DNA of 64,000 bases from Piedraia hortae CBS 480.64 (GCA_010093745.1 MU006002.1:62001-126000), one strand, 5' to 3'; counted from the first letter of the stretch, positions 2,711 through 61,300 are shown. Program-made: numbers and translations. Notes: generated by a model from the sequence alone, not told the origin.

Positions 2711-3294
2711 CATGAGTGGTGAAGCTGCAAATGAATATGAGTATGGCGTGGGCTTGGCAAAAGCGGGCCACCCTTACCCTACCCCGCGCTCAGGCAGTTC
2801 TTTGATTGACCGCTCCTGGTCAAATCATGTGATGTGGAAATTACCGCATCTGTCTCACACGGAAATGCTTCCGTATAGTTGGGAGGGCGGAAGGGGTTCC
2901 ACAAGACACGACAGTTTTCCACATGTGAAGTGTAGACTTGGGCCCATTATGTTTCTGCCCTCTGATAGCCTTGCGAGGTTCTCGCGGAAAATTTTCGAGA
3001 TTTTCAAGGTTGAAGAATTAGAAAGGTGTGTTTGTAGACGGTGGATGGGTTGTCGCAGAACGAATTAAAGCTAATGGCATTAGTCCTCTATGTGGAAAGA
3101 AACATACATTCTACTTTTTGCGTCCATCACTCGTTCCACGGTATTGATATTGTGCTGGTCTGAATTGTGCACTCGTAGCGAGCATGATCCTAGTTATCGT
3201 TATGACGTTTCATCGTGACCACGATACCACCATCAGCTCCCCCTCGCTCAAAGACCCAAAAATCCCAGCAGAAACACCACTCAACCCCGTTTTG

Positions 3295-4736
3295 TTAAGT
3301 CCAGGGGCGTGAATACTGGAGGACTCCTACCTGGCAAACTGACGGGACGCCGCTTGTCCGGCCGCCCCAAATGTCGTGGATTTTACCAAGGTCGAGGGAG
3401 ACGACACAAGGAAACAGAGGCGTCATGATGCAGCCGAGCAGCTCTAGAGTTGCAATCCCAGATAGCGTGCATGCCCTGGTGTTTGGGCAGGCGTGCCCGA
3501 GCGCAATGAGCGTCCTAGCTGTGAGGGCTGTAGCGCCGTCGAAGATGAAGACTTCTAGTTTTGGCGTGGCGGCAAAGAAATCAATCATATGATCTTTCTT
3601 GAGTTGACGGCCCCTGGGACCAGCGACGTGCCAGGACGGGATTACATCCAGGACGCCGAGAAAGTAGAAAGCTTTGAAGGATTGAAAGGCTGCGGGGATG
3701 ATGTGGTCGGTATCCCGGTCTAATCGGTCGGTCGTGAAGCTGATTGACAGAGCCGAATATTCGTTCAGGATGAGAGGGTACATGCGTGGGACTGGTAGGA
3801 CTAGCCTCTTGCATTGGCCGCCCAGTTTTCGGAAGCTGGACACTCTTCCATTCGCGGTGTCGATCTCACGGTGGGCATGGATGACTTTTTGACAAGCGAA
3901 GAGCACCGGGCGTTTGTCGATGGGGTCGTAGGAATGCCCGGAGATTGCATCCCGGAGAGTGGATTCCTTTGGAATGTAGCACGCGCGGCAGGCCCCAAGT
4001 TTTTGGAGTAGTCACGTAATCTTTTCTCTCATTTTCATTTTGACGCTAGACATCCAGCTCATAGCGTTGTTAACCCACAAACGCTTGTAATTCTTCTGCT
4101 GGGAAAGGCGAGAGGCGATAATGGCCATCTGATTGGCACCGTGTGCGTGATCATTCATATTAGACAGATGAAGTTAGACGGATTCAAGATCGGTAAAGCG
4201 GTCCAAGCCCGCCGTAAGCATGGCCCAGTCGCGGGAGCGACCCGCGAAAGACAGGCGCCGGATATTGCTTGGGAGTGTATCAAGGATATTCTCCTCATAG
4301 TCCTCCATGGATCCAAGAGAGACCTGGATGTTGAGGCATATACGTACAGCTTGAAGCCGACGAATGATCAAACGGTCGACATTGTTTCTAAAGATGTTTG
4401 CCCACCACAAGTCGGGCGCAAACAGCTGGACTTCTCCCACCCTGTTTATGTAAATGTCTATTGACGGGTCCGTGAGGGTTTGGGGCTGAACGCTACGACA
4501 TAGGACGCTCAAAGCAAGATCTGCCCACGCTTGGTTGATTATTATGATGTGGTAAAGAGCGGCGTTGTCGCCCGCATTGTCTCGATGATCTTAAGATATA
4601 CCTCCTCTGGGACATGAAAGCTCAGGGGGCGTTTGCTGCGGTGGGTAATTTTCGTGCGGTGCGAGGACCTGGCCGTCATGGGAATTTGGAGGTTGATATT
4701 TGGGGATGTCATGATGTTAGAAAGGACGGTAGACAT
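3295..4736 (-). pseudogene. F-box-like/LRR-like protein pseudogene, copy 1
   Basis: F-box-like FHVPEEVYLKIIETM...(frameshift)INQAWADLALSVL, followed by LRR-like segments (PKLEVFIFDG, LIALGHACPNTRACTL) split over ORFs 4542-4736, 4174-4512 and 3295-3906; paralogous relic at 47834-48870. Confidence 0.6.
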
Positions 4737-5320
4737 GATGTGATAGTTGCAGAAAAGAGGGTGTTTAGGGTGGGAGAATCAGAATCTTTTAAGATACCAA
4801 GTTGTCACGCGATCAAGATACTTTACCCTCATTATCTTGCCAGAATGTTGTTCGAAGGAGCTTTCAGATGTGGAAAAACGTTTGAAAATGCTCGTTCAAT
4901 ATGAGGGAATAGTGCCTATCAGGTGGTGGTCACATGGAAGTCGTCTGTCTTGTTAAGACTACAAGAACGCGCTTCATACTTGATCATATACATATCTTCG
5001 CATAACCCGCGCAAACATTTCGCGCCCAGATTTTCAGTGCCCAAACATACTCCTGTATTTTTCACACTACAACTAAACAACTCAGGTGGCGGTACTGTAC
5101 CTCTTGTTGGAAGACAATTGTTGCGTAGCGTAATCGTTCTGAAGATTGAGTTTTTAACAAAGTAGTATTTTCTGATGTTCAGCAGCGAGCTTAGATACAA
5201 CTAGCTTCTTTGTTCAGACAGTCTCAAGTATCACTCCATTGACCCACTGTCCTCTTTATTATGCCCTTTGAGAATTTTGCTATACAGGATTCTTCTTTGT
5301 ACAGTCTTTATCAGGCCGAG

Positions 5321-5626
5321 TGTCGGAGGGGTGAACCTCCGAGGACTAGAGCGGAGTGGATGTCAACGACGAAAGTTTTCACTCAACTTTTACTGAAAAA
5401 GGTGAAAATGTAATTGTCTCTCTCTATGAGGTGAGGTTCGAAACCTCCCCCACACTACCTCAGTCTAACCGCATTTGCCAGGACAACGTCAGCGAACCAT
5501 GCCCTTAAGCATGAACGAGACAATGACCCGTCTCAGGGAAAACTTCCTCTATAGAGGTAAAAACCCTGAGAAGTTTCGACTTCTATCTATGGTTCTAATC
5601 ATGGTGGGTGCTACATCCTTTTGACA
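5321..5626. mobile_element. Solo LTR, family B (306 bp), TSD CCGAG
   Basis: TGTC...GACA termini; perfect 5-bp direct repeat CCGAG at 5316-5320 and 5627-5631; second copy at 40526-40831 (about 94% identical by manual count). Confidence 0.9.
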
Positions 5627-6194
5627 CCGAGGTATGGCACTGATACCTCTCAACAACACCTCGTTCCTCTCTCTTTCCCCTTAATCAATCCACATGATCC
5701 GAAACACTACAATTTCAACTTCTCACCACAAAGCGTCCTCAACGCGAGATAAATTTCAGTCGGCAAAGTAGGGCTTGGAAAGTTTGTGGAAAAATCGCAC
5801 GCACCAAGTGCAAACTCTAATTCGTGACTTTCTTGTTCGATTATTCAAGGAGGATTGAGGTGAAGGCGCAGATGATATCGATATATTGAGATAATTGTTT
5901 GAATTGGACGATCCTCGTCTGTAAGTTACAGGGCAGGGATGACTTATCATAAAGTCTGCCATGACGTCATCTGATATCATTTCCTCTGAAACACTTTCAC
6001 ATTCTCAGTTTTTCATCGCAAAATCGTCGATTAAATGACACAGACGATCTACATTGCCCTTTGTACGAAAGAAAAGCCAACATCAGTACACGTCTGTTGC
6101 GGGTAATCACTGGCATTCATCACATCGCTATCAGTCTCCATATTCACAAAAGTGTTCATATTGCACGGGCATTTAGAAAATTATCTTTGACACC

Positions 6195-7719
6195 CTATGC
6201 CGTGTAGGTCGATGCAGAAACATCACCTCCCCGTCCAGTCCAGTTGACATGAATGTCCTTGCCTTCAGGATACTTCTGGCTGGCGTATTCAGGCTTGATG
6301 CGGAAAGTGTGCGCGCCGAAGTAGTCGCGCTGTGCTTGTAGCAAGTTTGCGGGGAGATCTTTAGTGCGAATACCGTCGTAGAAGGCCAGGGCTGTGGCAA
6401 AGGCCGGTGTTGGGATACCCCAACTGACGGCCTTGCTGACGGTGTCGCGCCAACCAGGTTGCGCCTTGTGGATTGCTTTGTTGAAAAAATCGTCGTACAG
6501 AAGGTTCTCTAGATCTGGGTTCGCCCGGTAAGCTTTGGTTATGTCCTTGAGGAATACTGAGCGGATGATGCAACCACCGCGCCACATAAGGGCAATCTCC
6601 GGCTTCTGCAACTTCCAGTTATATTCTTTAGCGGCCGCCTGCATCAACATAAAACCCTGCGCATACGAAATGATCTTGGAAGCGTAAAGGGCTTGCTCGA
6701 GGTTGGCCAGCGCCTCTTTCAGATCACCCTTGAAGTCGGGCTCAGGTCCAGACAATCGCTTGCTAGCATCGATACGCTCTCCCTTGAGGGATGACAGGCA
6801 ACGCGAAAACACAGCTTCACCAATCAACGTGACTGGCTGACCCATATCAAGGGCGTTGATGGCTGTCCACTTGCCCGTTCCTTTCTGACCGGCGCAATCG
6901 AGAATCTTCTCCACCAAGGGCTTACCATCGTCATCGTTGAAGTACAGGATATCGCGAGTGATCTCGATCAAAAAGGAATCTAGAACACCCTTGTTCCACT
7001 CCGCAAACGTGTCACCCATTTGCTTGTCACTCATCTTGAACCCACGCTTCATGAGGTCATATGCTTCACAGATGAGCTGCATATCGCCGTATTCGATGCC
7101 ATTATGCACCATCTTAACATAGTGTCCAGCGCCCTCATCACCAACCCACTGGCAACAGGGCTCACCATCACTCTTCGCCGAGATGCTCTGGAGTACGTCC
7201 TTGATGTACGGCCAGGCCTCCTCGTTACCACCAGGCATGATGGACGGGCCCCAGCGGGCGCCTTCTTCGCCGCCTGAAACGCCACTGCCGACAAAGCGAA
7301 TATGCTTCGAGGCCAAATACTTGGTGCGACGATTGGTATCAGGGTAGTGGGAATTGCCGCCATCGATTATAATGTCGCCTGGCTCGATACCGGCCTTGAG
7401 GAGCGTCTCGATGAAGTCGTCCACAGGCTTGCCGGCCATGACCAACAGCATGATGCGTCTAGGCTTCTTCAGCAGCTTGACGAACTCTTCAATCGAGTGT
7501 GCACCAATGATGCTCTTGCCTTTGGCCTCGTGTTGCAAGAACCGATCAACTTTGGACACGGTCCGATTGTAGGCAATGACGGTGAAGCCGTGGTCTGCCG
7601 CGTTAAGGATGAGGTTCTGCCCCATGACCGCAAGGCCAATAAGGCCGAAATCTCCGCTAACGAGTTTAGCATGCTAACAGGCAGTGAAAATCTCACACTT
7701 ACGGAGGCTGTTGAGACAT
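6195..7719 (-). CDS. GND1: 6-phosphogluconate dehydrogenase, decarboxylating
   Basis: GLIGLAVMGQNL, IIIDGGNS, GVSGGEEGA, VKMVHNGIEYGDMQ and QRDYFGAH motifs; exon 1 at 7719-7703 (MSQQP), GTAAGT...TAG intron 7702-7657, exon 2 at 7656-6195. Confidence 0.97.
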
Positions 7720-7832
7720 AGTGATAGTAGGTCAGTAAGTGTCAGTCAGTGTAGTATCACACAGGTAGGAGAGATGGAAGGTGGAAGAGTTTTAATGGTA
7801 GGAGGGGTGGACGTTTGAATGGTGGGGGTGAA

Positions 7833-7840
7833 TACGTCAT
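7833..7840 (-). promoter_or_regulatory. CRE-like bZIP (Atf1-type) site ATGACGTA in the divergent GND1/RRM promoter
   Basis: Motif match about 115 bp upstream of the GND1 ATG; short motif that could occur by chance. Confidence 0.25.
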
Positions 7841-8046
7841 TGAGGACTTCCTTTGTAATTGCTGAGAAAAAGCTAATCATTCACTCGGCCAAACTGACAG
7901 CAATCAATTGGCCGTGGCCAGACTCGCAGACTCGTTGTCGTGCATTGGTGACATCATGAGGGGCACGTTTGGCCGGGCCGGGCCGTGACCTGCCGTAATC
8001 GATCACATTACATAATCCGTTGCAAGCCAATACAATCCAATCGAAG

Positions 8047-8790
8047 ATGAACCATGACGCCTATGGCAACGCTGGGTACGCCTATCCGTCTGGTTATGCA
8101 GACCCTTATGCTCAACCACAACAGTATCCAGCCGCACCACTAATACAGAATCCCTTTGGGGCGACGCCGGCGGGCCCATCTAACACGTATAACCCGGAAT
8201 ACGAGGCGGCGATTGCGCAGTGGCAGTCGGCTTACGTGCCTACTGAAGAGCAGAGTCGAAGGGCAGCTGCGAATACAGCTCGCGGTGCGGCGGGGACCCA
8301 AGATGGCGCCCAGACCAAGGGAGAAAAGAAAAAAACCGTGATACGAAAGGGCGGCGGGCAGACGTGGGAAGACAAAACGCTTCTCGAGTGGGACCCAACG
8401 CAATTTCGCATCATGGTTGGAAATCTGGCCGGCGAAGTGACGGATGACTCCCTTGCTAAAGCCTTTGCGGCGTACGGCGTCTCTAAGGCGCGCGTCATAC
8501 GCGATAAACGCACAACAAAGTCAAAAGGTTATGGGTTTGTGTCGTTCTTAGACGGAGAGCAGGGATTCAAAGCAGCGCGAGAAATGGTGGGCAAATACAT
8601 AGGCAGTCATCCGGTCACGATACAACGAAGCAAGACGGATATCCGGCCGGTCACACTAAAGCAGGATAAGCACAAGAACAAGAGTAAAAAGCCAGACAAG
8701 GCAAAGAAAGGAGATGTCTTACGTGCAAATACTGGCTCTGGTGTAGAGAAGAAGACTGGCAAACAGTCTGGTATCAAGTTCCTAGGCTGA
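8047..8790 (+). CDS. RRM RNA-binding protein, RBM42-like
   Basis: KTVIRKGGGQTWEDKTLLEWDP followed by an RRM (IMVGNL, KSKGYGFVSF); first in-frame ATG at 8047. Confidence 0.88.
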   Translation: MNHDAYGNAGYAYPSGYADPYAQPQQYPAAPLIQNPFGATPAGPSNTYNPEYEAAIAQWQSAYVPTEEQSRRAAANTARGAAGTQDGAQTKGEKKKTVIRKGGGQTWEDKTLLEWDPTQFRIMVGNLAGEVTDDSLAKAFAAYGVSKARVIRDKRTTKSKGYGFVSFLDGEQGFKAAREMVGKYIGSHPVTIQRSKTDIRPVTLKQDKHKNKSKKPDKAKKGDVLRANTGSGVEKKTGKQSGIKFLG

Positions 8791-23620: not shown

Positions 23621-23884
23621 TGGTGCCTTTGACGAGCTCTAGATTACAGAGAGTAAGAACATGTGGTACGGACTGCACTCATTGAATTGTAAGCGAATAT
23701 TTGAGCATCATATGATGTGCAGTACTGCGTTTGCAGATGTGAGTGGCGTACTGACTCGATGGTAAGAGCACCTGGCTCCCTGAAAGTGTGAAACAAAATT
23801 GTGTGTTGTCACGTTTCACGCTAGCGGCCCGCCCCGTTGTAACGTGCATCCATCCTGAAACTTTCCAAACGTAAACGATAACCA

Positions 23885-24025
23885 TGTTGTGCAGGTCGCC
23901 ACGGAGCGATCCGCAGGTGATGACCCACACCCCTGACTAGGGTTCGAATACTCAGATATTTTCTTGTGTAGCTCTAGATACGCGTATATACTGACACCTG
24001 TGAGGTGCCGCTGCTTATTAGAACA
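23885..24025. mobile_element. Miniature solo LTR, family A (141 bp), TSD AACCA
   Basis: TGTT...AACA termini; perfect AACCA at 23880-23884 and 24026-24030; inverted second copy at 40378-40520. Confidence 0.88.
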
Positions 24026-24036
24026 AACCAGACAAC

Positions 24037-30820: not shown

Positions 30821-32308
30821 AGACCCAGCCAGACAAATAACGCTGCAGACAAGCGACTCCTAGTGAGTGCCTGCAGGTGGGAGAGACCGGACGCGGCCAT
30901 CTCCGATTGTCCTAACATTCTTTTCATAATTTATTGAAACTCGCAATGTTGTCGTGGAACATTGTTTATATAGTTGAATTTGAGTCGCGAAGTTTATAAA
31001 AGATGTGGTAACCTGCGACAGGGTCCATCATGTCAGTATCGATCTTCGACGTGGCTTTGGAGGAAGTTTGCCGTGGCGTTGCGTTTTATAGTCAATGCAC
31101 CAGAACGCTTGAAGACTGTAATTAGGGGAGAATGTGGCTCTTAAAGAGGGGAAGTTTTTGAGTGCGTGATTGACCAAATGGCAGCAGACATGTCACTTGC
31201 CTATCAATTTTTGTGTGTAGATGAGAGAGCAAACAAGGAAGGAGTACGGTCCTTTCCAACTTCTTTTGTTCTAGCTTTGCATGTTATCAGCGTTAAAGAG
31301 CAAAAGACTTCAAAGATTTGCTTGAGGACAAACGATGGACCACTTTTATAGATCCCTATGGTAGGATGTGAGTACCGAAAAAATATGCGCCTCACCAGCC
31401 TCGGGAAAGCCCAATAAAAAGCTTATTTGCGTACAAATAACTTATCAAACTTTCACCCTAAACACATCGTCTGGAACATTCTGTATGTCCGAGCTGTTCG
31501 TGTGGGAAACTATGGTCGAACTGCAGTGTACGCATTTCGTCATTAAGAAGGGCCCATCACAGGGGGTAAGTTGGCAAACCTGAACCAAGCTGTAAATTGG
31601 GGAAGGGCGTGCCATTGCTGGGAGAGTGAGCTTCTGCCTAGCTCGTATATGTGAATGTCTAATTAGTCTAAAAAACGCTATGATCTGCGGATATCCTAAG
31701 AGGCGTAAGCTATCATACGCCCTAAGCGTTGCGAATTACTTCCCTCGCCACGGGATCAATGCTGTGCAAGGGCATAGTACAATTTTGCCGTGCTGAAAGA
31801 ATCGCTAGATAAATAGCCCTCGTCTTTCCCTAGGGATTGCGCAAGAGTCATATCGCAACGTCTTGCTTTCCAAGTAGGACAACTTTAACAAATTTTCAAA
31901 GGAAAAAGAGAGGTCATACTAATTCCGCTAAAGCGTTGCGTCCGCTGCGGCAGAGTTCAGGAATTGATTGGACAACTTCCGGCGCCACGTTGATGATGAG
32001 CCGAACTAACAGATGCACGTCATTGGATTAACACTACCGCGTGAAATGTGGGATCCTGAAAGATTAGAGGATCTCTGAAAATAGGGCGTTCTAGATGCAG
32101 GAAGCAGCCCCTGAAATGACGTTTACGACGTTGATTGGCTTATGGAGCGGCCCGCTACCCGCTGCAACTGACATGCCGTCGCCGACGACGTAGCCAGGCG
32201 GGCGTTGATGGAACAAGAAGAGCTGCCTGCCGTGTAACTGCTACCCAAACTGCTGCACCGTGTTGAGCTGGCCGCTGACCATCCAAAAACACTTGAGAAT
32301 CTTAGCGC

Positions 32309-38192: not shown

Positions 38193-40377
38193 CGAGTTCA
38201 TGGAGGCGTAGTGCGCTGTATGAGTGATGTTTGCAACTGCGATAAGTAAAGATCTCCAGAACTCATGGAAAAAAAGAATTTTCTCATGCTCAAAAGTCGA
38301 AGGTTTCTGTACCGTTTCATGCTGTCGTTATCTTGCGCCTTTGGGGAAAGGCACGGAAGTTTGAATTTGAACACCGGGTCCGTGCGGATTGTAGATTTAG
38401 CGTGGAAAGCTTCTTTGATGAGAGCAGGAAGTAGTATCTTAGCACAAGTGGAAAAGGGGACAGCTTGGTCGGAGGTTTTGGACAACGGAAACCCTGAAGT
38501 GGTTGTTGCTTTGGAAGGATTTTCTGCTCTGCAACGGAATAGTACGTACTGGCTGTTTCTGGTCGTGCCGTAGTTCATCAGTTTATACCGCCGAATAGAG
38601 CGGCCAATAGAATATCCTTTGTTACTAGGGAAAAAGCGAAAGTCTCTTGTTGGATTAATGTTGTGGAGTTGTGCAGCTGGGACCTGACGGCGATAATGTG
38701 TCTTCCCCACCACTTCCCTCAGGCATACCCGCATTCTGTTGATGATAGTCGGGAGCCAGTCCCAATAGCTTTAGTGCGACCGGTAATCTCACCTCCTATT
38801 GAGTCTTGGTAGGAAGGTAACAACAACAACATTGTCTTTCGTGTCGCCTCCCATTCCTATATTCATTACATTAGCGGTGTGACAAAAGCCTATCCTTACC
38901 AGGTGTCGACAAAGACTCCCTTAGAAACATTACAAATCCGGCATGCGTCGAATGAGAATTTCTTGTAAAACGATGACAGACCTGTTCATATACATTTACT
39001 CTGTACACATCATACAACAAGTATAAATCACAGCCTTGTATCATCCGCGTACCTTAGGTTGTGAGCCCGGGTGTACCTAAACTGATGGTCATCAACCACC
39101 ACAATGCCAACTGAGCCGAAATCTGCCGAATTGCACAGTTCAGGCAAAACCGATCACGTGGAACCCCCCCCAATTTAACAGCAAGGATGCTTCGTTCTAG
39201 AACTGGAAGAAGACTTGAAAGACCATCTGTGAATCCGATCATGTCCGGAACGTCTTCACTGCCACCGCCCCTAAGCGCGACCAGTCCCACACGCCGTACA
39301 CGCAGTGGAAGCCCAAAGACACAAAAGCAACAATGATGCTCCACAGTGCCGTGGAGAATGACATCACTCATCTTGTCTCAGCGCTTCAATTTTCTACGAG
39401 GCCTGGAGCAATCTATCGAAACGCTTCGATAGGGACACGACCGATGAAACCATCTTTTTGTCCAGATCGATATCCCAAATGCGTTTCGATAATGGCGAGG
39501 ATTGGCTTACTCGGAACTTCAAAAACACATCGATGATTTCCATACCGATGCAACAGACCTGTCCCGGGGCGGACCACATTGTCGCCCTTATTCGACATTG
39601 ATATTACTAAAGTCGCGTTTTCGAAATTTACGCTTCCTGAATCAATGGACAACTTCGTGGACGACTTGAACACCAAACTGACCTCTTCCTTTTCGGAGAT
39701 CCTCGATCCACCGCATGACATCATTGACAAAGACGCCCTGAAGAATCCCATGACGACGGATACATCGAGACGCAAGTACTTAAGGCCGCCAATGACATCC
39801 TCCAATAAATACCGTCTTTTCTGCGAACCCCGTGGTTTCTCTTACAGAATACGGGGGAGCCATGGCCTCTTGACCGTTACTGAGAAGGTCTGTAAGGGTG
39901 GCTTCCTCATCCAACTTGTAGGCCTTAGGGACATTGAAAATTTAACCTCCTACCATGAGGTCCACTGAGTCATTGGACACAGTTATGTCCCAAACCTTGC
40001 CAAGATCTATCAAGACAGCAATCAAATTCCATCCCGGCCAAAGGACTTTTCTGCAGAGACTGTGTGAAGTCCAAGTCTCTACCTGCCAGACGCTCCTCAA
40101 AACCCTTCGAGGTCATCCATTCCGCTCGGTCCGGAAGATTCTCAAACTGCCAATTGGCCAATCGCGATATTCCGTCTTTTTCACCGATGACTAGACCGCG
40201 GGTTGTTTTCCTGGAACTAGGAGAAGAGGAGGCATCGTTGCCAAATGACCAGCTTCCTACGCTGAATCCAGAGCAGCGTACCGCATACGATTCAATAGTT
40301 AACACCATCGACCACGATCCCGAAAACGTCCACTTCTTTCTGTAAGGCCCGGGAGCGGCAAAAATTTTAATAAAAGG

Positions 40378-40520
40378 TGTTCTAATAAGCAGCGGCACCT
40401 CACAGGTGTGTCAGTATACACGCGTATCTAGAGCTACACAAGAAAATTTCTGAGTACTCGAACCCTTGTCAGGGATGTGGGTCATCACCTGCGGATCGCT
40501 CCGTGGCGACCTGCACGACA
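40378..40520. mobile_element. Miniature solo LTR, family A (143 bp), inverted relative to 23885-24025
   Basis: TGTT...GACA termini; flanks AAAGG (40373-40377) and CAAGG (40521-40525); colinear with the reverse complement of 23885-24025. Confidence 0.88.
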
Positions 40521-40525
40521 CAAGG

Positions 40526-40831
40526 TGTCGGAGGGGTGAACCTCCGAGGACTAGAGCGGAGTGGATGGCAACGACAAAAGTTTTCACTCAACTTTTTCTG
40601 AAAAAATGTGTAATGTAGATGTCTATCTCTATGAGGTGAGGTTCGAAACCTCCCCCACACTACCTCAGTCTAACCGCATTTGCCAGGACAACGTCAGCGA
40701 ACCATGCCCTTAAGCATGAACGAGACAATGATCCGTCTCAGGGAAAACTTCCTCTATAGAGGCAAAAACCCTGAAAACTTTCGACTCCTATCTATAGTTC
40801 TGGTCATGGTGGGTGCTACATCCTTTTGACA
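40526..40831. mobile_element. Solo LTR, family B (306 bp), TSD CAAGG
   Basis: TGTC...GACA termini; perfect CAAGG at 40521-40525 and 40832-40836; same orientation as copy 5321-5626. Confidence 0.9.
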
Positions 40832-41626
40832 CAAGGCCTTATAGTTCTGCTCCGAGGGGGATATTGTCATCTGCATGGCATCCTCCGGCAATGCGGCTTT
40901 GCTGCTGCCCAATGGAACTAATGCACACTCCTGCTTCAAGACCCTTATCAAGTGTGATGAGGGATCTATCTGCAGCATCCCAGGAAGGTTGCAGTTTGTA
41001 GATCTGCTGCACCAGACGTCCCTGACATCTCAAAGTTCCATGATATCGTACGGTGGTCTTGAGACGTCGGCCGTCAGAAAGTATGAGAAGGAGAGGATGT
41101 AGTTGCCTGCATTCTGTGATCGATACCCCTGACCGGGATGTGGAGTACTCTTAGAAATTTTGATATTCTTGGAACTTTGCCGGAGCCAAGATTCAAGCCC
41201 AGTCCCAAACGAGTTAGTTGTTGGAGGTCGAGTAGACGGGTTAGGCTCGGCCGGAGAACGGGTGGCTGGCCTTCACTAATTTTGTCAGCTTAACGGCTGA
41301 CAACGGTTGAGCCCCAACCGTTTTGAAGGGGCATCCATCAGATCCATCACAGCAACAGAGTCATCTTCCGTAGTTTTTCCTTCCGTTTGTTCCATCTCGA
41401 ACTCACTTCCAACGAGGCTGACATCAGTTCCGGCTTGGAACTTTCGGCAATGACATATGCAACACCACGCAGACTTCAGGCGTCTGAACCTTCTACCGAA
41501 CGTAGTTCACGTCTTTGCCTATAGCGTACACGGGTCATCTTCCCGATATTATTGTAGCTAGAACTATCGCACCGTCCAGTTTTGACTGCTTCTGTCCCCT
41601 ATTTTGTTTTTGGGGTGTCGCACTCG

Positions 41627-44600
41627 ATGTCGCATAAGTGTATGCTTTGCCATACGCCAGTCGGGAATCTGCACGTTACCAACACCACCAGAAAGCTTGG
41701 AGCACACCTTGCCCGGGAAGATCACTTAAGGACAATGAGACGTACGCAGAACGAAGACCCTCAAAGGTATCAACAATACCTGGTCTGGGAGCAGGATTAT
41801 AGAGCCGATCATGCCCGGAGTGCCTATCTTACATCATTAGCCGTTATAGCTGGAGTTATGGCTTTGCAAGAGACTCAGCCATGCCAGTTTTGAGGATGAT
41901 ATGACGGAACTGGGCGTAATAGAGACTCTTTCACAGGCCTTTGCAGACGTTGATATATTGGACTATGATGAGTCTATGGATGTTGGTTACTCGGCCGGGA
42001 TCAACGTCGAAAATCAAATGATCAGCCGCCATTCCCACGAATCTCAAGAAGGTGGACCCAACATAGAGGGTGGACATGACAGTGACATGGAAAGTGACAT
42101 CGAAGATAGGGTGACAGTGGAGGAGAAGAAGAAGGTGAGGAAGAAGAGGGATGTGTAGATGACGGTATGGAAGAGGCGGGGAGTTGGGAAGACGAAGCAT
42201 ATGGCCAAGATAGGAGAGGTGATCAAGATGAAGCTGAAGCTGAAGCCGAAGAAGGCCATAGAGACGAAGATCGGAATCAGCCACACTATTCTTGCTCCCC
42301 GCGATCTGCACCACCAGGTCCCGCACTTATTGCAGAGCCTGAGCACGAATATTCCCCTTTCATATGCGAGATAGACGCTCTATTTTTCGCATTCGACGTT
42401 TCGACACATCATCAAGTCAGTAACAAATCTATGAGCTCTATCATCGAGTTGATGAAGGTGTATTGGAAATCGCACGGACGACACCTGATGGGACCATTTC
42501 CATCCCAAGTGTTTCAAAACTGAAGCGATACAAAAATGTGGTTCCCTCACCAGAAATTCAACGGCGAGTTCCCCCTGAAGCAAAGTCGTTCCATCAAATC
42601 AGCATCCTGGACAGCATGAGGATGGAGGCTTGCAAGCCCGGTATGAAACTGGTACAATATTCTGAGATATTGAAACCTGCACCGGCATTCTCGGGTGAAG
42701 GAAAAGTGGTTGCCAATCAAATGCGGCATGGCGACAAATGGAGAATGGAGCGACAGCTTCTGCGCCCAGTATATTGTTTGAGACTCCGCGAAGGACATCA
42801 AGATGTATGGATCAGTGATGTACTGGAGCTGTGTACGGGTGAGAATGCCATGTTCTATGGTTGCGAGATCCACACCACGCGAGGGCAGAGCGCATTGGTT
42901 GTTTGTGCTATCAAGCTGACTCTGGCAAGACCTATCGCGCCAAGCTCTGAGAAGGCGAGATTGCTCCTGCCAATAAAAGAAGGTGCATTGGATCTTTCCG
43001 AATAAACGGACCTTCTACTGGACGAGCGGGATACCGTCAAGGCTCAGAAAAGCAACCAAATTTAAGTTTGCTGCCCAAGACGGGGGTCATATCAACGCTT
43101 ACCTTGAGCAAATGCTTCGTACCTCACACCCGCAAGGCGGTGTGAATTAGATGTGGTCCAGTGCAACTCTTGCTTCTGGTCAGACGGTACCAGTGCTGTC
43201 AGAAGCTCTCGCTGAAACCACATTCAGGCCCTCTGTATAACACTTGCTGGAAGGTCCCAGAAGATAACTCGGCCAAATACTAGTCACATCTTCATTGTAG
43301 TAATGAATTGTCTAGCAGGAGAATTTTCATCCATCAGCACACATTTTCATAGCCGTTGGCGAGGATATCAAAGGCCACCACATGATTGGTGCGATGATAC
43401 CCGAAAAAGTCCACTCCAGCGTGAAATACTGGCGTTCAATCCTGCAAGTCGATCCAGACGAGTCCTTGTCGGCATCCCGGTGATGGTGCAAGCAGATAAT
43501 GCCGAGGCTTCAGAGCTTGGTAGCCATAAGATGTCCAGCAATCTTAACTGCCGGGTATGCATCTTTGATAAGAGAGGAATAGACAGGTGGGAAGACTTCG
43601 TCATCCCGTGTGCTATACGGGTGCTGCGGATCACGAAAAGCTAGGATGAAGAGGGTGGAAGGTCTGGCAATTACAAGGCCGATAGGGCGGCTATTAGACT
43701 CCCACTCACGGCCATGTACGAAATCCCTGGCTTGGATCCACACCAAAATCTACCATACGACAACCTGCATTGTGTCCTGCTGGGTTACGTGCAAATGCTG
43801 TGGACGGAGATGGTGAAGGACAGCAGGGTGAAGCCAGACGTGGAAGATCTTGACCTGCGAACGGCCGCCGCCAGTCGCGAAGGAGGAATCCAAAGCATGG
43901 TAGGTGGCAAGCGCATCACAAACTGGAGCAGGTCGCTACAAGGTGGCAATTTTGGCTCAATCATCCAGCTTTGGCCATCAAACCTCCTGTCCTTCTACGA
44001 ATCGAAAGGACGGCTTTCCGAAATGCAGGACCTGATCCACCTCTGGTCAACATCAGCCAAGTTAACGAAGCTATTGTACGCCACGAATCTCATGGATGTC
44101 GATGCATGGTCTGAGGAGGTTCAGCAGACATACGAAGAAATGATTTGCAACTGGGCGGACATGTGGGGCCTTGACTACATACGCAGCAAGGTCAAACTTC
44201 ACTTGCTTTGTCATGTGGTGATGTGGGTCAGAAGATTCGGGCCCATTATCGGTGCTCAGTGCAAGACGCACGAGTGCACGAACAAACACCTGCGCGGAAA
44301 CGGGGAGCACACCAACCGCCAGGCTTACTCTTTGGACATCGCAGGGAGGTACAGCATTTTCTCTGGAGCACTCCACTTGGCAGCGGGAGGCTAGTGGCCG
44401 GTCAATCAGACCCATATGACCTATTCAGGTCGAAGTCTTGTCGCTCTTTTCAGCTCCTCACTGGTTCAAGGATTTTGGGGGTTGCGGACAGTGCAAGGCC
44501 CGGGAAATTGCCAATTATGGAGGGAGAGGAACGTGAGCGATGATACAATTGATTCAGCTCTACATATCCACCTTCATGATCAATACGTGGTTCCCTGGGA

Positions 44601-45065
44601 ACATGGCCAATATCAAAGGTACCATCGGATGAGCGGATTACATCCCTGCCGTATTGGATCCTTCGTACAATCCGCCAACTAGGGCTAAGCTTTGTTCCGC
44701 ATCCGATTTTTCTTGCGTGAGACACTCCGAGGTGGAGGTATTGCGTTGTTGGAGGCCTTTCAGGAAGCCACCCCGCAGTCCGAGGCTGAAGAGTTCAGTG
44801 TGGTTGAAGGTCACAAGCTCATTGCACCTGCAGGATGGAACCTGACGTCCTTGCTGCCTGATATTATGGCTGTTCTCAACGTGCAGCATCTGTGCGGCAG
44901 CGGATGCTGATGGACTTGGGTGCCATCTGCACACCGTGTGAAGAGACGACACATTGAATGAGCTAAACGGAAGCATGACGAATCCAGGCACGATCGCTGG
45001 TTCATACATGCACACGTTATCAAGACGGATGTATGATTATATAGCAAGAGTTTCATGCAGTTAGA
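41627..45065 (+). mobile_element. Degenerate large transposase, CACTA/EnSpm- or Plavaka-related fungal family
   Basis: N-terminal CxxC...H...H finger, acidic tract, YSPF, FWSDGTS..S.R*NH, VQADNAEASELGSH..CRVC, GLDPHQNLPYDNLHCVLLG, KLHLLCH..WVRRFGP..HECTNKHLR..HTNRQAYSLDIA and LNVQHLC across frameshifted ORFs. Confidence 0.7.
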
Positions 45066-45826
45066 ATCGACATTATACCTTCACCCATTATCGAGACAGA
45101 ACATTACTCTCCATCGCATATGACGCGATAATGCTTAAACTTCCGTCAAAGTGATATATTTTCGGGCGATCTTCAGACAAATCGGGTTGGGGTAAAGGTA
45201 TATCCCCACAATAATGCATGAAACATAGCATGGAATATTGCGGGGATATAGGGTATTCCCGCAATATTGAGCGTGGTTAGCCGTGTAGGTAGTTATCCCA
45301 CTGCGTACATACATAGGTGCTTCTAGGTGATCTCTGAAATGCGCCAAAACACCATAGACAACGGCTTGGAATAGCCTAACATCAGTTGTCTCAGTAGTTC
45401 ATGCTTTGAAGATTCATAATATACCCTTCTTGATTGCTCATGAATCCATTAATAGCCAACATGTTGCGATCTATGGCAAAATGCACCATTGCGGACTTGG
45501 GTCAGAATTGTAGCGTTAGTGCTGAGTATAAAGAAACATACTCTCCGTCAGTGCCCCAAACATCAAGATTTATGAGCACTGATGGTCATATCTGTTTTCG
45601 ACACGACAGAAAAGCGATAAAGCTACCGATGTAGCGACAGTAGGGTGTTCTATACCCATTTGGGATCGGAACAAGCAACAGAGTAATTTATCCTGATCTA
45701 CACCTCCAACCAGAGACCAAACGCACCCTTATACATGATTCTCATGTCGGGGTCAGGGGACATTAAGACTAACAATGCGTGACATGGAGCAGAAGATATG
45801 AAATCGCTCATAGCGATGGGCATTCT

Positions 45827-46188
45827 TGTAGAGATTTAGATCTCGTGGGTGAGAGTGCACAGCGACTCGAAGAGGACGGAGCGATAGACGGAATCAGGGA
45901 CAGGAAAGATGTAGATGTATGTGAGTCAAAAATACCAGTTGCAGTATGGTAGTGTCAATTGACTATTTCAAATGAGGGGACGTTCGGAATGAAAATTCTG
46001 TACCGGTGGGCCGGTGACGTCGCGTCGTACACTAGCGGGGCGTATTCACCATGTCACATATGACATGACCCTGAGGGAAAACCTCTGTGAGGGAAAAACC
46101 TAGGGTGCAGCCGGTAGTGTAGGAGGTATCGCTGACTTGCTATGCAAGTGCCCTGCATACGCGCTAGCGGCGATGCTTGAATCCAACA
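45827..46188. mobile_element. Probable solo LTR, family C (362 bp), TSD ATTCT
   Basis: TGTAG...CAACA termini with ATTCT at 45822-45826 and 46189-46193; internal TGACCCTGAGGGAAAACCTCTGTGAGGGAAAAACC resembles a segment of family B. Single copy in the window. Confidence 0.6.
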
Positions 46189-46317
46189 ATTCTGACGGCG
46201 GCAAGCTGTACAGGTGACCGCACAAAGTGACAAACACTTATGGTCACCATTGAAAACCATATGAGAAGGGCAGAAAGATAATTTGGCAATGGAAATTTAG
46301 TTTGGAGCTACAACACT

Positions 46318-46860
46318 TTATCTGAACGGCAAAGTCACAGAGCATCTCAACTGAATGGTCACCACCTCTTCAGCTTCAACGTCCCCAAAATCCGTGGCGG
46401 ACTCATCTCTGACCCTCTCATGTCCCTCCACTGCCACTGTAATTCTATCCAACAGTCCCTGCAAAATGCCAATGTTCATCTTCCCGTACCCAATCAGGCC
46501 TCGAATCTTCACCCAATCCTCAGCATGCATATAACGCTGCGCATTAGTCATATTCTCCTCGACCGTCTCGAGTACAAAAGCACATGCGGGTAGTCCACCC
46601 ACAAACTCACCTACGCCCATGAACAGGTGGCCCGGCTCAAGGTCAGCGGACTTGAAAACCCAACGCGGCACGGCATGATACCGCGTGGAAAGCTGATCGT
46701 ATGATCGCCTAGCTGCGATGACGGAAGCGAGGAGAGCATGCAACTCGCGATAGATGTTAAGAAGATCCTGCTTGGCATCCAGCATTTCGATGAGCGGGAT
46801 ATAAGCCTCTTCCAGGTTTTTGACGACGGATACGATGATTTTTTGGTTCAAGTTTGACAT
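46318..46860 (-). CDS. Hypothetical 180-aa helical protein
   Basis: Uninterrupted ATG-to-TAA ORF with protein-like composition, AACATG start context and TATAAA at 46902-46897. Confidence 0.55.
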   Translation of the reverse strand: MSNLNQKIIVSVVKNLEEAYIPLIEMLDAKQDLLNIYRELHALLASVIAARRSYDQLSTRYHAVPRWVFKSADLEPGHLFMGVGEFVGGLPACAFVLETVEENMTNAQRYMHAEDWVKIRGLIGYGKMNIGILQGLLDRITVAVEGHERVRDESATDFGDVEAEEVVTIQLRCSVTLPFR

Positions 46861-47833
46861 GTTTTCATATGGAAGGCAGTGGAGAAGCAGCAGACATTTA
46901 TAAGAAGGGCTGTTGCTCTCGGAAGTTGGACGGGAATATATGAATTGTGAATGTTCGAGTGCTTTGTTGAGTGTGCCCCGTGGCTTTGTCCAATGTATAA
47001 ATGCATTGTTATTTTGCGGGAGGGAATAATAGCTTATACTCCTTGAAAAAATACAAAGATATTATCAAAACAACAATGTTTGCCATCGAAAACATTGTTG
47101 GGGTCATAATTGGCTTTACGTAACTCTTTGGTTACTGTAGGGGGTGAACTGTCAATTGCAGGGGGCCCCTGGCGTCGCCTTGCAGCATCCCCACATAAAC
47201 ACATAGTGTCATTGTTTTTCCAGACGGTCACGGACGCTCACATAACACTTTGGACTGTTCACTCGACAGATAAGCGGCACGATAGCAGTTCCGCGGTACA
47301 CTAGTAACCTTCGCGGCACATCTATAGCTGCACAGTACGTTAGCAACTAAGCAACACACCAGCTGTTAGATCGTGCATATATTATATTTTACGCAGATAA
47401 GGGGTACGTTGCCATCGTACAGTTCATCTGCTATAATGCCGCTTGGTGAAGCCGTCGGTCAACTGCTAAGCTGTTTTTCCAACGATGGCTGCTGCCTTTG
47501 TCTATCGTTTTACTGTGGTAAGCCGCTCTCATACGTTTAGCCGATTCCTCAAAACAGCGACTCTTGCATGGACCAAACGCTAAGTTACGTTGGTTCTAAA
47601 GCGCGCCTCAGGGCTGTTGAATGTGGCCGGAAAGAAGAATTAGTTCACTACAATCACGCTTGAGGAGCAAGTCAGCTATCCTACCTCAACGGAATCACTC
47701 CAGTACATACTCCGCTACATAAGAGTCCCTTCCCAGACTCACGATAATTCCCTCAGCTTTTCCTCACACACCATACCTCTCTTCATCTTTACAGTCTATC
47801 TACATCATTTTCTCCCTCATAGCAACCGCGAAG

Positions 47834-48870
47834 ATGCCTTCACGGTCAGGTAACCGCACCGCACGACGGTTCTCGCAAGCGCCCATTGAACTTCCTTATT
47901 CCTTTAGGAAGTCTACCTCGAGATCATCGAGAGGATGCCAACGCTGTCCTATACCACGTCATGACAATCAACGGGGCCCACTAAGTGTCTTATGTCACAG
48001 CGTCGAGCCCATTGCGCTCTCTGGCCTGGAAATAGGCATCTACGCTAACTAGGTCTAGGAACTGCGACTCTTTGCATACTGGATGGGGAGCGGTGAAATC
48101 CAAAAGGAACATTGTTGACCGTTCGGTCCGTTCACATCATTTTCAAGAACATATTCCTCACTCCAATAAATAAAATGAAGAACGTGCCCTCCCTGGCCCC
48201 GAGCAGCGTTCGGAGCTGCCGCACAAACCAGTGGTTCATGCTCACCAACATATCGCTTTCCTCAGCTAGAGTACGTCGACCAACATCAATACAATGGCTA
48301 TGATCGCGTCTCATCTTATCGAGCGTGACAACTGGGTCAACGAAGCCCAGCAATCAACCCTTCTTAGCAAAGCGATCAACGCTCCGTCTGCAATCGGAAC
48401 CACGGAAAAGGAAACGAGTTGCAAAATCTATCTAATGGGGGCGAAATGTCCACCGAATCCATCTACCTTCCAAGCCTGGCGGGCAAGTATCCGACTCTCA
48501 AACTCTCAGTGACCCATCGTCTGGACGAATTTACATCACCAAAACTCAAAGAACTACTCATAACCTTCACCAAGACGATAAAGTCTCCCATATCACCTCC
48601 GCTTTTAGGCCATTGGCGTTTCGGCCTGTACATCTTCGTCTCGGCGCTTCAGCGCTCCAGCGCACCAGGGTCAGTCAAATCACCGATACCGATATCCGCC
48701 GCGGTACCAAATTCCACACATCTATCTTTGACGTGAAGAGCAACATGGCGCTTGTTGCGCTTGGAAAGGTCTATCCGGCTTGCACGTTGGCGAGCGTAGC
48801 GAGCCCAGAGCTGCTGCGCAGCGTCACAAATCCCTTCTTCCCGCACCAATCCAATCTTAGGGGTTAGTGT
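47834..48870 (+). pseudogene. F-box-like/LRR-like protein pseudogene, copy 2
   Basis: Fragments EVYLEIIERM, LSVLCHSVEP..GIYAN*V*ELRLFA, MAMIASHL and IFDV..LVALGKVYPACTLASVASPELL..PFFP align in order with the relic at 3295-4736. Confidence 0.62.
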
Positions 48871-49120: not shown

Positions 49121-49212
49121 CGACACCTGCAGGATTCGAACCTGCGCGTCCGAAGACACTGCCTTGTCGAACAAATAGCAGGGCAGCGCGTTAACCACTC
49201 CGCCAAAGTGTC
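49121..49212 (-). tRNA. tRNA-Ser(GCT) with 11-nt intron
   Basis: GACACTT/AGGTGTC acceptor stem, A box TGGCGGAGTGG, anticodon stem CTGCC/GGCAG with CT-GCT-A and intron TTTGTTCGACA, long variable arm, GGTTCGAATCC, and downstream T8 terminator (49109-49116). Confidence 0.95.
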
Positions 49213-58373: not shown

Positions 58374-61300
58374 TTATTGACCAAAAACCTCCCCCTCAAT
58401 CTTCGCCAAAATCGACGCATCAATCTCACACGTCGGCGATATTGGCGCGAGTTTCTCCAGAAAGCGTATCGTTCTGCGGAGGAGGGAATGATATGTATTC
58501 TTATCGATTAGGTGGTTTGTTGTTGGAGAGAAATAGGTCGCGGAGAGGACGACTAGGTTGCCGAATTGTCTGTCTACCAGTTAGTATGGGGTTGAGGGTG
58601 GGGTGACAGCGTGAAGTGTCCCCTCCGGTGGGGTTTGGGTTAGGTAGGGGTGACAAGTGTCACATCCTCCTTGAAGAAAGATTGGGATGAAGAGGCTGAT
58701 TATGAAGACGATGGGGAGTGTTAATGATAGGGAGGATGAATGATGAGTGGGATGAATGACAGGGGATGAAAGGCAGTGAGGATGAACGACAGGGTTGGGG
58801 GNNNNNNNNNNNNNNNNNNNNNNNNNNNNNNNNNNNNNNNNNNNNNNNNNNNNNNNNNNNNNNNNNNGGGGAGGGGGAGTGTGAACAACTTACGCATGCG
58901 CCGTCCCATGAATATTCGTCACAACGAGTCGTCCTGGAATTCCATCAAACGCGAGTGTACTCTTCACTGCCGCAGCAATACACCTCTCACACGCCTGCCA
59001 TATGTTCCTCTCCTCCATCGTTGAAATTGCCTCAAAGAGATGCACATCCGCGGCAGCTCTAGGCCTTCCCCTCCCATCCTTCGCAATCTCTTTAATCGAC
59101 TCCCCCTTTCCCAACCGTGGCATGATATGCAGTGCATAATCCAGGAATGGACGGTTCACGATGAATCTCGCGCCGTAGTACTTCCCCCTTAGACGTGCAT
59201 CGAGGATATTGGACGGGGGCTCGTCATCGTCGTTCCATGACAGTTCGGGCGGGAGACCCGCCCTCCATGCGTTGAGGATCTCCCCGTGCCCCTTGAGGAT
59301 AGCGCAGACTTGTTCAACCGTATGGTCGAGACAGTCGTGTCCGTACAGGTCACGGTGTACGACATTTAACCTCCTCCGGAGGAAGAGTTGTGCGTTGTAG
59401 TAGATCAGTGTTTGTTCGTCCTCGGGGTTTATGGGAGGGGGAACTTTTTCAGACTCCTCGTCTGACGACGCTTCGTCGAGACGGATTCCCTTCGGAACGA
59501 GCAAGATGCCCTCCATTTTGGGGATGTCGCTGGAGGGTAACGGCAGCTCGGCTAAGATGTCTGTTTCGAGTTGGAGACAGGTCCACGAGGCGAGAACGAT
59601 GAGGTTCGCGTGCTTGTCTTTGATTCGCGCGTGGCTGTCGCGGAGTTGTTCCTTGACGTCGCCGGATGCCATCCAGCCTTCTTCGTTGTACAGTTTGTGT
59701 CGGCGGAGGAGCATGGTTAGGGCCCGCCCGGCCATGGAGTACCAGCTCATACTTTCTTTGAGGCGCGCCAGTTGGCCTTTGTAGAGCCCTGCCAACAGGA
59801 ACATTTGGGCGTGCACGAGGTCGTTGCCATCGGCTTGGTCGCCCAAAATCTCGGTTGCTTTGAGGTAGTAGGCCATGCCAGGGATGCTTTCGATGTCGAC
59901 GGGTGTGGAGTCGTGCATCGAGTCGATGGAGTGGCCGTAACTGCGCGAGCGGCGGGATAGAGCTACGTCGACGGGGGAGTCGGGGGTTGCTGTCAACGAC
60001 ATGGGAGATGCTTTGATTGCGTGCATCCCCGATGGACTCGCTGTGATGGGCCGTCCTGCAACCGTGATTGCACCGTTGGCCTTATTTCTAGGTAGACACC
60101 CCGGCAGGCGCTGCCGATGAGCGCAGATCTTCCCCAACGCAAGCACCAGATAGACTACGGCATTTCCAGGCGACCTCTCCCCGGGGTACTTTCGTCGTGA
60201 ATTGGATGCATCTGCCGACCCCGATCTCTGCCGCTTCAACGGAGGTGGTGCATCGTGGTGTCTCTTTGTCGTTTGACCTGAGCAATTCCTCTCAATGAAC
60301 CGATCAAACGCCTTTCGCAGCCTAGATCGATCGAGGAACGGATGCATTGGGTGGATATAATGCATATAGTTGTCGTACAGCTCGTTCACAGTCGACTTAT
60401 CCAGGTCCAGGGCGCCATTTGCTTGAAGTCCGGACATTCCCGCCTGGCCGCCAATCTCTATGCCATCGTAACCCTCCAATATTGATCCCTCCAGACACAG
60501 CCGTATGGCGCCCTTCTCCTCAGCGTCCATGACATAATTCTCATCGTAGCGCACATCAGCCGCAACAAGCAACGGATGGAAGCTGGGCCACAGGGACAGC
60601 AAGTTATGTGCGCCCGTTCGATGTGAGCCTTTTCGCTGCTTCTTGCTCATCTTCACCACCGCCTGCTGTTCCGCCGCCGGCCTCATCTGCTCCAGCCTTC
60701 GAAGCCTCGAGTCCATCTCATCCAACTTCTTGCTGAGCATCGTCAGTCCGGCTGAGTGCGCCTCCATATACGACATCAGCTTCTCCATGTTCTTGTCTGT
60801 TTTAGCCGGCGGAGTGTCGCGATACTGGCAGATGAGGTTGCTTTCCTTGCAAAACGAACACGGCGAGCCCTCGTCGCACTTTTGCTTCCGCGACCGACAT
60901 TGTTCGCACGCCTGCGTTGCGCGCATCTGCCGTCGCCGGTGCTGCACGAACCCCGAGCCGGCCATGGCATGCTGGTAGTTTTGTTGCGGGTAGATGGGCT
61001 GCGAGGGTGGAAGCGGCACATAGTGCGAAGGCCCCCCCTCGAGACCCGGCGACGCGAAGGGCGTATGTTCTGGATGCGCCGGGCGCTGGCTTACAGTCGA
61101 TGACGGCGGCGCGGGCGGCGGCGGTGGCGGCGGCGGCGGGAGGCTGGTGGGCGCACCGTGGCTTGGATAGCCTTGTTCGGTCGCACGAGACACCTGGCCC
61201 TCGATCAGATGGTGCAGATGATGCTGCTGCTGCTCGGCGCCAAATGATCGAGCAAACGCCGGCAACGACGGCTCGCCCTGCTGAGCCTGGCTGTATTGGA

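Follow-up and report, generated by a model that had tools for sequence, protein, structure and literature searches.

Two unrelated families of LTR retrotransposon, termed A and B here, appear to have inserted at one and the same five-base target in the fungus Piedraia hortae, where each is now present as a solo LTR. The two elements lie end to end at 40373-40836 of the window, the whole 64,000-nucleotide stretch of DNA that was analyzed, in the order AAAGG, A (143 bp), CAAGG, B (306 bp), CAAGG, and the sequence that they interrupt is a decayed helicase of the PIF1, or Helitron, type. Two integrations into the same five bases would be by far the simplest account and the best reading of this locus, because the spacer between the elements matches the flanks at 5/5 and 4/5 positions, both families produce duplications of 5 bp at other sites, and the two flanks form a contiguous sequence. 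The original prediction had proposed two successive integrations into the same five bases, and these three features support it. The whole account preferred in this report, with somewhat better than even confidence, is a double insertion of A and then B that reached the same site by coincidence, with no homing on LTR ends needed.

The preferred account would proceed in four steps. An LTR retrotransposon of family A would have integrated into AAAGG in a fragment of a Helitron-type helicase that was already dead, and the five bases would have been duplicated. The copy to the right of A would have changed from AAAGG to CAAGG. When the unrelated family B then integrated, its 5-bp staggered cut would have fallen exactly on the CAAGG copy, leaving CAAGG on both sides of B. 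Each element would have been reduced to a solo LTR through recombination between its own two LTRs.

Structure of the insertion site

The anatomy of the site was observed directly in the window sequence (Table 1), and the predicted layout of AAAGG-A-CAAGG-B-CAAGG was borne out there in both letters and coordinates. A and B have the same orientation and common end letters (TGT...GACA); in both window copies of each family, A has the termini TGTTC...CGACA and B has the termini TGTCGG...TTGACA. Local alignments of A with B scored 10 and 11, whereas the shuffle means were 10.6 and 10.3, so that the families have no similarity above the shuffled controls. The TG..CA ends and 5-bp duplications suggest that both elements are remnants of LTR retrotransposons that were inserted by an integrase.

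Table 1. Positions in the window of the paired LTRs, the target copies, the two helicase parts, and the second copy of each family

Feature	Position	Strand	Remarks
Left target copy, AAAGG	40373..40377	+	Probably the ancestral letters; this codon reads K or R in 9/13 relatives and Q in none
Solo LTR of family A, 143 bp, TG..CA	40378..40520	+	Contig loose ends at 40378 and 40520
Middle target copy, CAAGG	40521..40525	+	Serves as right-hand copy for A and left-hand copy for B
Solo LTR of family B, 306 bp, TG..CA	40526..40831	+	Contig loose ends at 40525/40526 and 40831
Right target copy, CAAGG	40832..40836	+	
Left helicase part, up to and through Walker A	40190..40372	+	tblastn: P0025 residues 904-973, P0012 477-538, frame 2
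Right helicase part, PIF1 profile positions 48-105	40837..41069	+	Pfam PF05970; relatives align; truncated after ~41024-41069
Second family A copy	23885..24025	-	94.4% identity; perfect 5-bp duplication AACCA (+ strand) at 23880-23884 and 24026-24030
Second family B copy	5321..5626	+	94.1% identity; perfect 5-bp duplication CCGAG at 5316-5320 and 5627-5631

The spacer between A and B is CAAGG, and its 5 bp are also the length of the duplications around the other copies of A and B. It is identical to the right flank (5/5) and differs from the left flank at one base (4/5). For a 5-mer unrelated to the flanks, the probability of a 5/5 match on the right together with a match of at least 4/5 on the left is about 1.5e-5 (hand arithmetic). 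The duplications AACCA/AACCA, CCGAG/CCGAG, and CAAGG/CAAGG are perfect, and AAAGG/CAAGG agrees at 4/5 positions.

The interrupted helicase

The sequence to the right of the insertions has a match to the PIF1 profile PF05970 at 40845-41102 (E 4.3e-10), which covers only profile positions 48-105 of 223. A comparison of this frame with 1.84 billion representatives yielded 306 proteins at E up to 0.001, and all 12 of the relatives that were aligned by tblastn match at 40845/40851-41024. For the left part of the helicase by itself, a word search among longer proteins returned no relatives and no solved structure matched; this part was identified only via tblastn with relatives of the right part. 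Residues 904-973 of P0025 align to the left flank and residues 979-1036 to the right flank; for P0012, residues 477-538 align to the left, where the last part of the alignment extends into the LTR, and residues 537-594 to the right. Since tblastn places adjacent segments of the relatives on both sides of the insertion, and the relatives aligned across it have 5-9 residues between the two flanks, the left and right flanks read as one helicase sequence that was continuous before the insertions.

When both elements are left out, the restored reading is GPGAAKILIKGLI; the reading GPGAAKILI-KAL, which the original prediction had given for the Walker A motif, could not be reproduced in its "...ILI-KAL" part. 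A TAA stop interrupts the reading frame of the relic at 40343-40345, its Walker A motif is reduced to GPGAAK, the frame shifts by +1 before FCSEGDIV, and the 3' part is truncated. On its sequence it is a pseudogene, and it was either already dead at the time of the insertions or is dead now. Helitrons have a 5' TC terminus and a 3' hairpin plus CTRR, and they insert between A and T. The assignment of the relic to a Helitron helicase is reasonable but indirect: the PIF1 match and the joint presence of Helitron_like_N and PIF1 in 7 of the 16 longer relatives scanned favor it, so that the label rests on relatives, whereas no Rep (Helitron_like_N) domain was found near the relic in the 51 ORFs scanned of the 129 at 38200-48500.

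Apart from the helicase fragment, the same 51 of 129 ORFs gave no confident Pfam match in the 38.2-48.5 kb region, and ordinary fungal genes are found on both sides of it. Just upstream of the relic, 39362-39601 (+) matches a copia-type gag domain, though very weakly (E 0.044); if this match is real, the region is a patchwork of transposon remains. At 41026-41300 the contig depth rises to 32-45 (vs ~12 in the flanks), one contig matches with 34 differences and 2 gaps, and the helicase relic is cut off there by another low-copy repeat. A 75-residue protein, P0003 (40875-41102, +), is identical to part of the relic; it is a public gene product, the sole member of its cluster, and most likely a gene call on a fragment of the pseudogene.

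Copies elsewhere in the window and genome

Each family has two copies in the 64 kb window, a density that agrees with a high copy number. Self-comparison of the window found only the A pair, the B pair, and one weak third pair. The second A and the second B each stand alone within a perfect duplication of their own, AACCA and CCGAG, respectively, just as had been claimed for them. No motif is common to the three target sites in the window, and no 6-mer is present at all three.

The weak third pair (47783-47972 vs 4738-4534, on opposite strands) is 67% identical over 206 bases and is perhaps the "family C" of the original prediction. A structural scan of the window for TGT...ACA with 5-bp duplications gave 14 candidates vs 9.35 in shuffles, which is too near chance to count further LTRs; candidates with TGT...ACA ends and perfect 5-bp flanking repeats include 45827-46188 (362 bp), 3702-4166 (465 bp), and 31212-31781 (570 bp). 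Neither reverse transcriptase nor integrase was found in the window ORFs scanned (25 of the 83 of at least 120 aa, and 51 of the 129 of at least 45 aa in 38200-48500). An assembly gap of 66 N is located at 58802-58867.

Copies beyond the window were sampled in one public DNA run, X1, which is kept as k=31 contigs and contains 83% of the sampled words of 39800-41400. X1 may come from the same sample as the assembly; agreement of its contigs with the flanks therefore provides no independent confirmation. At 80% likeness, 598 X1 contigs were placed on 39900-41300. Loose contig ends are found at 40378 (21 contigs), 40520 (12), 40525/40526 (9 and 30), and 40831 (17), and the continuations beyond the four LTR ends are unlike one another (flank agreement 0.36-0.44). 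Because loose ends pile up at these positions with unlike continuations, all four LTR ends are fixed from many other copies. The depth of X1 is about 12 in the flanks, 2275-5759 in A, and 2245-8706 in B; the ratios to the flanks (190-480 for A and 187-726 for B) correspond to about 200-700 copy-equivalents, a figure of summed contig depth and no true copy number. A and B are abundant dispersed families.

The outer junctions are found among the X1 contigs with 0 differences: record 1 passes out of the left flank and covers the first 29 bases of A, and record 6 starts 26 bases before the end of B and continues into the right flank. The middle CAAGG junction is present in none of the X1 contigs listed and rests on the window sequence alone; contigs of k=31 are unable to bridge the LTRs. 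Two X1 contigs have the 3' end of A (40520) followed by the 5' start of B (40526), a joint that "skips 5" (the summed depth is 28.3, and the shorter side has 52 letters); the contig record gives no distance between the two parts. Among the joints listed, this is the only one that links two LTR ends. The two contigs may represent further A-then-B abutments, with another spacer or none, or they may represent unique DNA that starts in an A copy and ends in a B copy, i.e., neighbors. On the neighbor reading, with 8 roughly equally likely neighbor types, the probability that 2/2 are of this type is about 1/64 (hand arithmetic).

Other searches with the inserted sequences gave little. The 70-aa ORF across the junction had no candidates among predicted proteins, the four ATG ORFs of the LTRs were absent from the protein collection by exact look-up, and the junction pattern and the conserved B core had 0 matches each in metagenome scans, as expected for a fungal isolate. 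The consensus sequences behind the 3' ends of the other A copies and of the other B copies both start with (G)AGAAGAC at low agreement (0.38-0.44), which could be a common internal start or primer site, or noise; the consensus behind the other A copies also contains the reverse complement of the first nine letters of A. The most length-variable part of family B is a T-run/A-run stretch at 40596-40631, with several gains or losses of 1-2 bases among the contigs.

Order of the insertions

The target codon encodes K in 4 of the 13 relatives, R in 5, N in 2, S in 1, E in 1, and Q in 0. Since K or R is present at this codon in 9/13 relatives and Q in none, AAA, and hence AAAGG, is probably ancestral, and the left copy is probably the unmutated one. 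A was probably inserted first. The original prediction had likewise considered A the older element, and that order stands as the probable one; the reason given for it, a mutated left duplication, does not, as the left AAAGG is probably ancestral and the copy right of A is the one that would have changed. Among the rows listed, the local B has about 7-8 private differences from the family majority in 306 bases, and the local A has 1 in 143. This excess in B fits an older A poorly, although substructure within a family can produce such an excess.

Probability of a shared site

According to the paper on 101 Dothideomycetes genomes, the Piedraia hortae assembly comprises 16.95 Mb and 7,572 genes (PMC7082219). 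The chance model assumed random placement in a genome of about 17 Mb and used depth-based proxies for copy number. The expected number of exact A/B stacks is 0.004-0.017 for random placement over the whole genome, 0.012-0.048 if 35% of the genome tolerates insertions, and up to 0.17 if only 10% does. For all LTR families, with an assumed total of 1000-3000 copies, the expectation is 0.06-1.5 stacks. Depending on copy number and usable genome fraction, the probability of an A/B stack is 0.4-16%. The locus was also picked from a scan of very many windows.

One stack does not reject chance; for the A/B pair alone, it is not "expected" either. The shared site is most likely a coincidence, which is made plausible by the hundreds of copies per family, by a small, compact genome that leaves little room for tolerated insertions, and possibly by a regional preference for dead DNA. 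The claim that such a coincidence demands base-precise targeting has so far found no support, since the families are very abundant, the chance expectation is small but not negligible, and the case was selected. If the two contigs joining 40520 to 40526 are further abutments, chance fails: the probability of at least 3 A/B stacks is at most 7e-4.

Alternative accounts

It is very improbable that the locus records anything other than two events, i.e., a single composite A+B unit that was inserted once or an assembly artefact that joined two loci. The middle junction is seen in none of the contigs listed, contigs of this word length cannot span the LTRs, and A and B may be directly joined at some other place in the genome. 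However, a composite or a misassembly would require the spacer to match the flanks at 5/5 and 4/5 positions by chance, and both were rejected. A and B each occur singly elsewhere, within duplications of their own; the flanks are single-copy DNA (depth ~12) from neighboring segments of the helicase; and a spacer equal to the duplication is not something that an assembler would invent. An opposite order of events, which appears doubtful, would start from a pseudogene that already carried CAAGG. B (or A) would have inserted, the other element would have followed into the CAAGG copy, and the leftmost copy would later have changed from C to A. The larger number of private differences in B among the rows listed favors this order, and the K-to-Q change could have preceded the insertions in a helicase that was already decaying. 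Yet this order needs two changes at one base (A to C, and back to A) where insertion of A first needs one, and none of the 13 relatives has Q at the target codon.

The remaining alternative, targeted stacking, is held to be rather unlikely and concerns the choice of site. The second integration would have been directed to the five bases that abut the CA end of the resident LTR, or this position would be a single-nucleotide hot spot. The cue could be an integrase that recognizes the LTR end or, as with Sap1 and Tf1 in fission yeast, a host protein in or beside LTRs. The low probability of a base-exact coincidence for A and B in the simple model favors targeting, as do the common TGT...GACA ends in the same orientation and the two contigs that join 40520 to 40526 when the joints listed include no other end-to-end combination. 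There is also a precedent in the single-nucleotide specificity of Tf1 with Sap1 (PMC7175516). Against targeting, only one case is seen directly, and the other A and B in the window each stand alone. The 12-30 other copies at each end have unlike flanks (agreement 0.36-0.44), so the majority are not joined to any one sequence. The two A-B contigs, for which no distance between the parts is recorded, could each consist of unique DNA that links one solo LTR to another; no motif recurs among the three target sites of the window, and the finding was selected from a very large scan. A more specific proposal, that LTR elements home on the junction between the CA end of a resident LTR and host DNA, cut exactly on the first duplication, and form recurrent A-then-B stacks of which the two extra contigs are further cases, is considered unlikely. 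Targeting to Pol III genes, as in Ty3, was rejected: no Pol III gene is near the site, and the only tRNA is about 8 kb away. This tRNA, the only one in the window, was identified by Rfam at 49121-49212 (-; 92 bases, 51.7 bits) and presumably has an intron; ARAGORN found no tRNA in the window and missed this one.

Implications

If the shared site is a coincidence only, as preferred here, the locus is still a clean textbook example of two integrases using the same five bases, and it calls for caution against a naive reading of target duplications in LTR-dense genomes. If stacking recurs, the cue for integration would be carried by the LTR ends themselves. In a very compact genome this would amount to a safe-haven strategy, and it would offer a way for dispersed LTRs to become tandem arrays. 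Homing on LTR ends, if true, would be a base-precise mode of integration that builds head-to-tail LTR arrays from unrelated families.

Relation to known systems

In budding yeast, the Ty1-Ty4 elements have left solo LTRs piled up upstream of tRNA genes. These Ty families reuse a very narrow window of targets, and the resulting solo LTRs are adjacent or nested. In contrast to the yeast piles near tRNA genes, the site described here has no Pol III gene within about 8 kb, and A and B are not nested but have the identical five bases in common.

Double insertions that share a target and retain its duplication in the junction have been described for Drosophila P elements and others, and the cases reported include some LTR-LTR junctions and an inverted Rover pair (PMC5932611). 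Such double insertions are described as commoner where the site is close to the target that is preferred (McGurk and Barbash 2018, Genome Res; PMC5932611). These cases resemble the one described here in having two insertions on one target and a duplication copy of the right length in the junction; they differ in that the cases presented there are of the same family, mostly full length, and from Drosophila (PMC5932611), whereas here two unlike families are present as solo LTRs in a fungus and one target base differs. Tandem R1 elements in Drosophila rDNA, cited in the same article, are separated by the duplicated target, which proves two insertions at one site (PMC5932611); the junction between A and B likewise keeps the duplication. 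R1, however, is a site-specific non-LTR element with one fixed target (PMC5932611), whereas A and B insert at many unlike sites.

The integration of Tf1 in Schizosaccharomyces pombe is single-nucleotide specific via Sap1, which, according to a review, binds within LTRs and beside retrotransposons (PMC7175516). Tf1 thus provides a known route by which an LTR retrotransposon can repeatedly use the same nucleotide and land beside resident LTRs, since its guiding protein binds LTRs (PMC7175516). The three target sites in the window, by contrast, have no common motif. In a full-text literature search, judged by titles and the starts of abstracts, none of the papers listed concerned two unrelated LTR families on one duplication, which argues only weakly that no such report exists. 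The locus adds an example to a known type of event, and its unusual twist is the involvement of two unrelated families.
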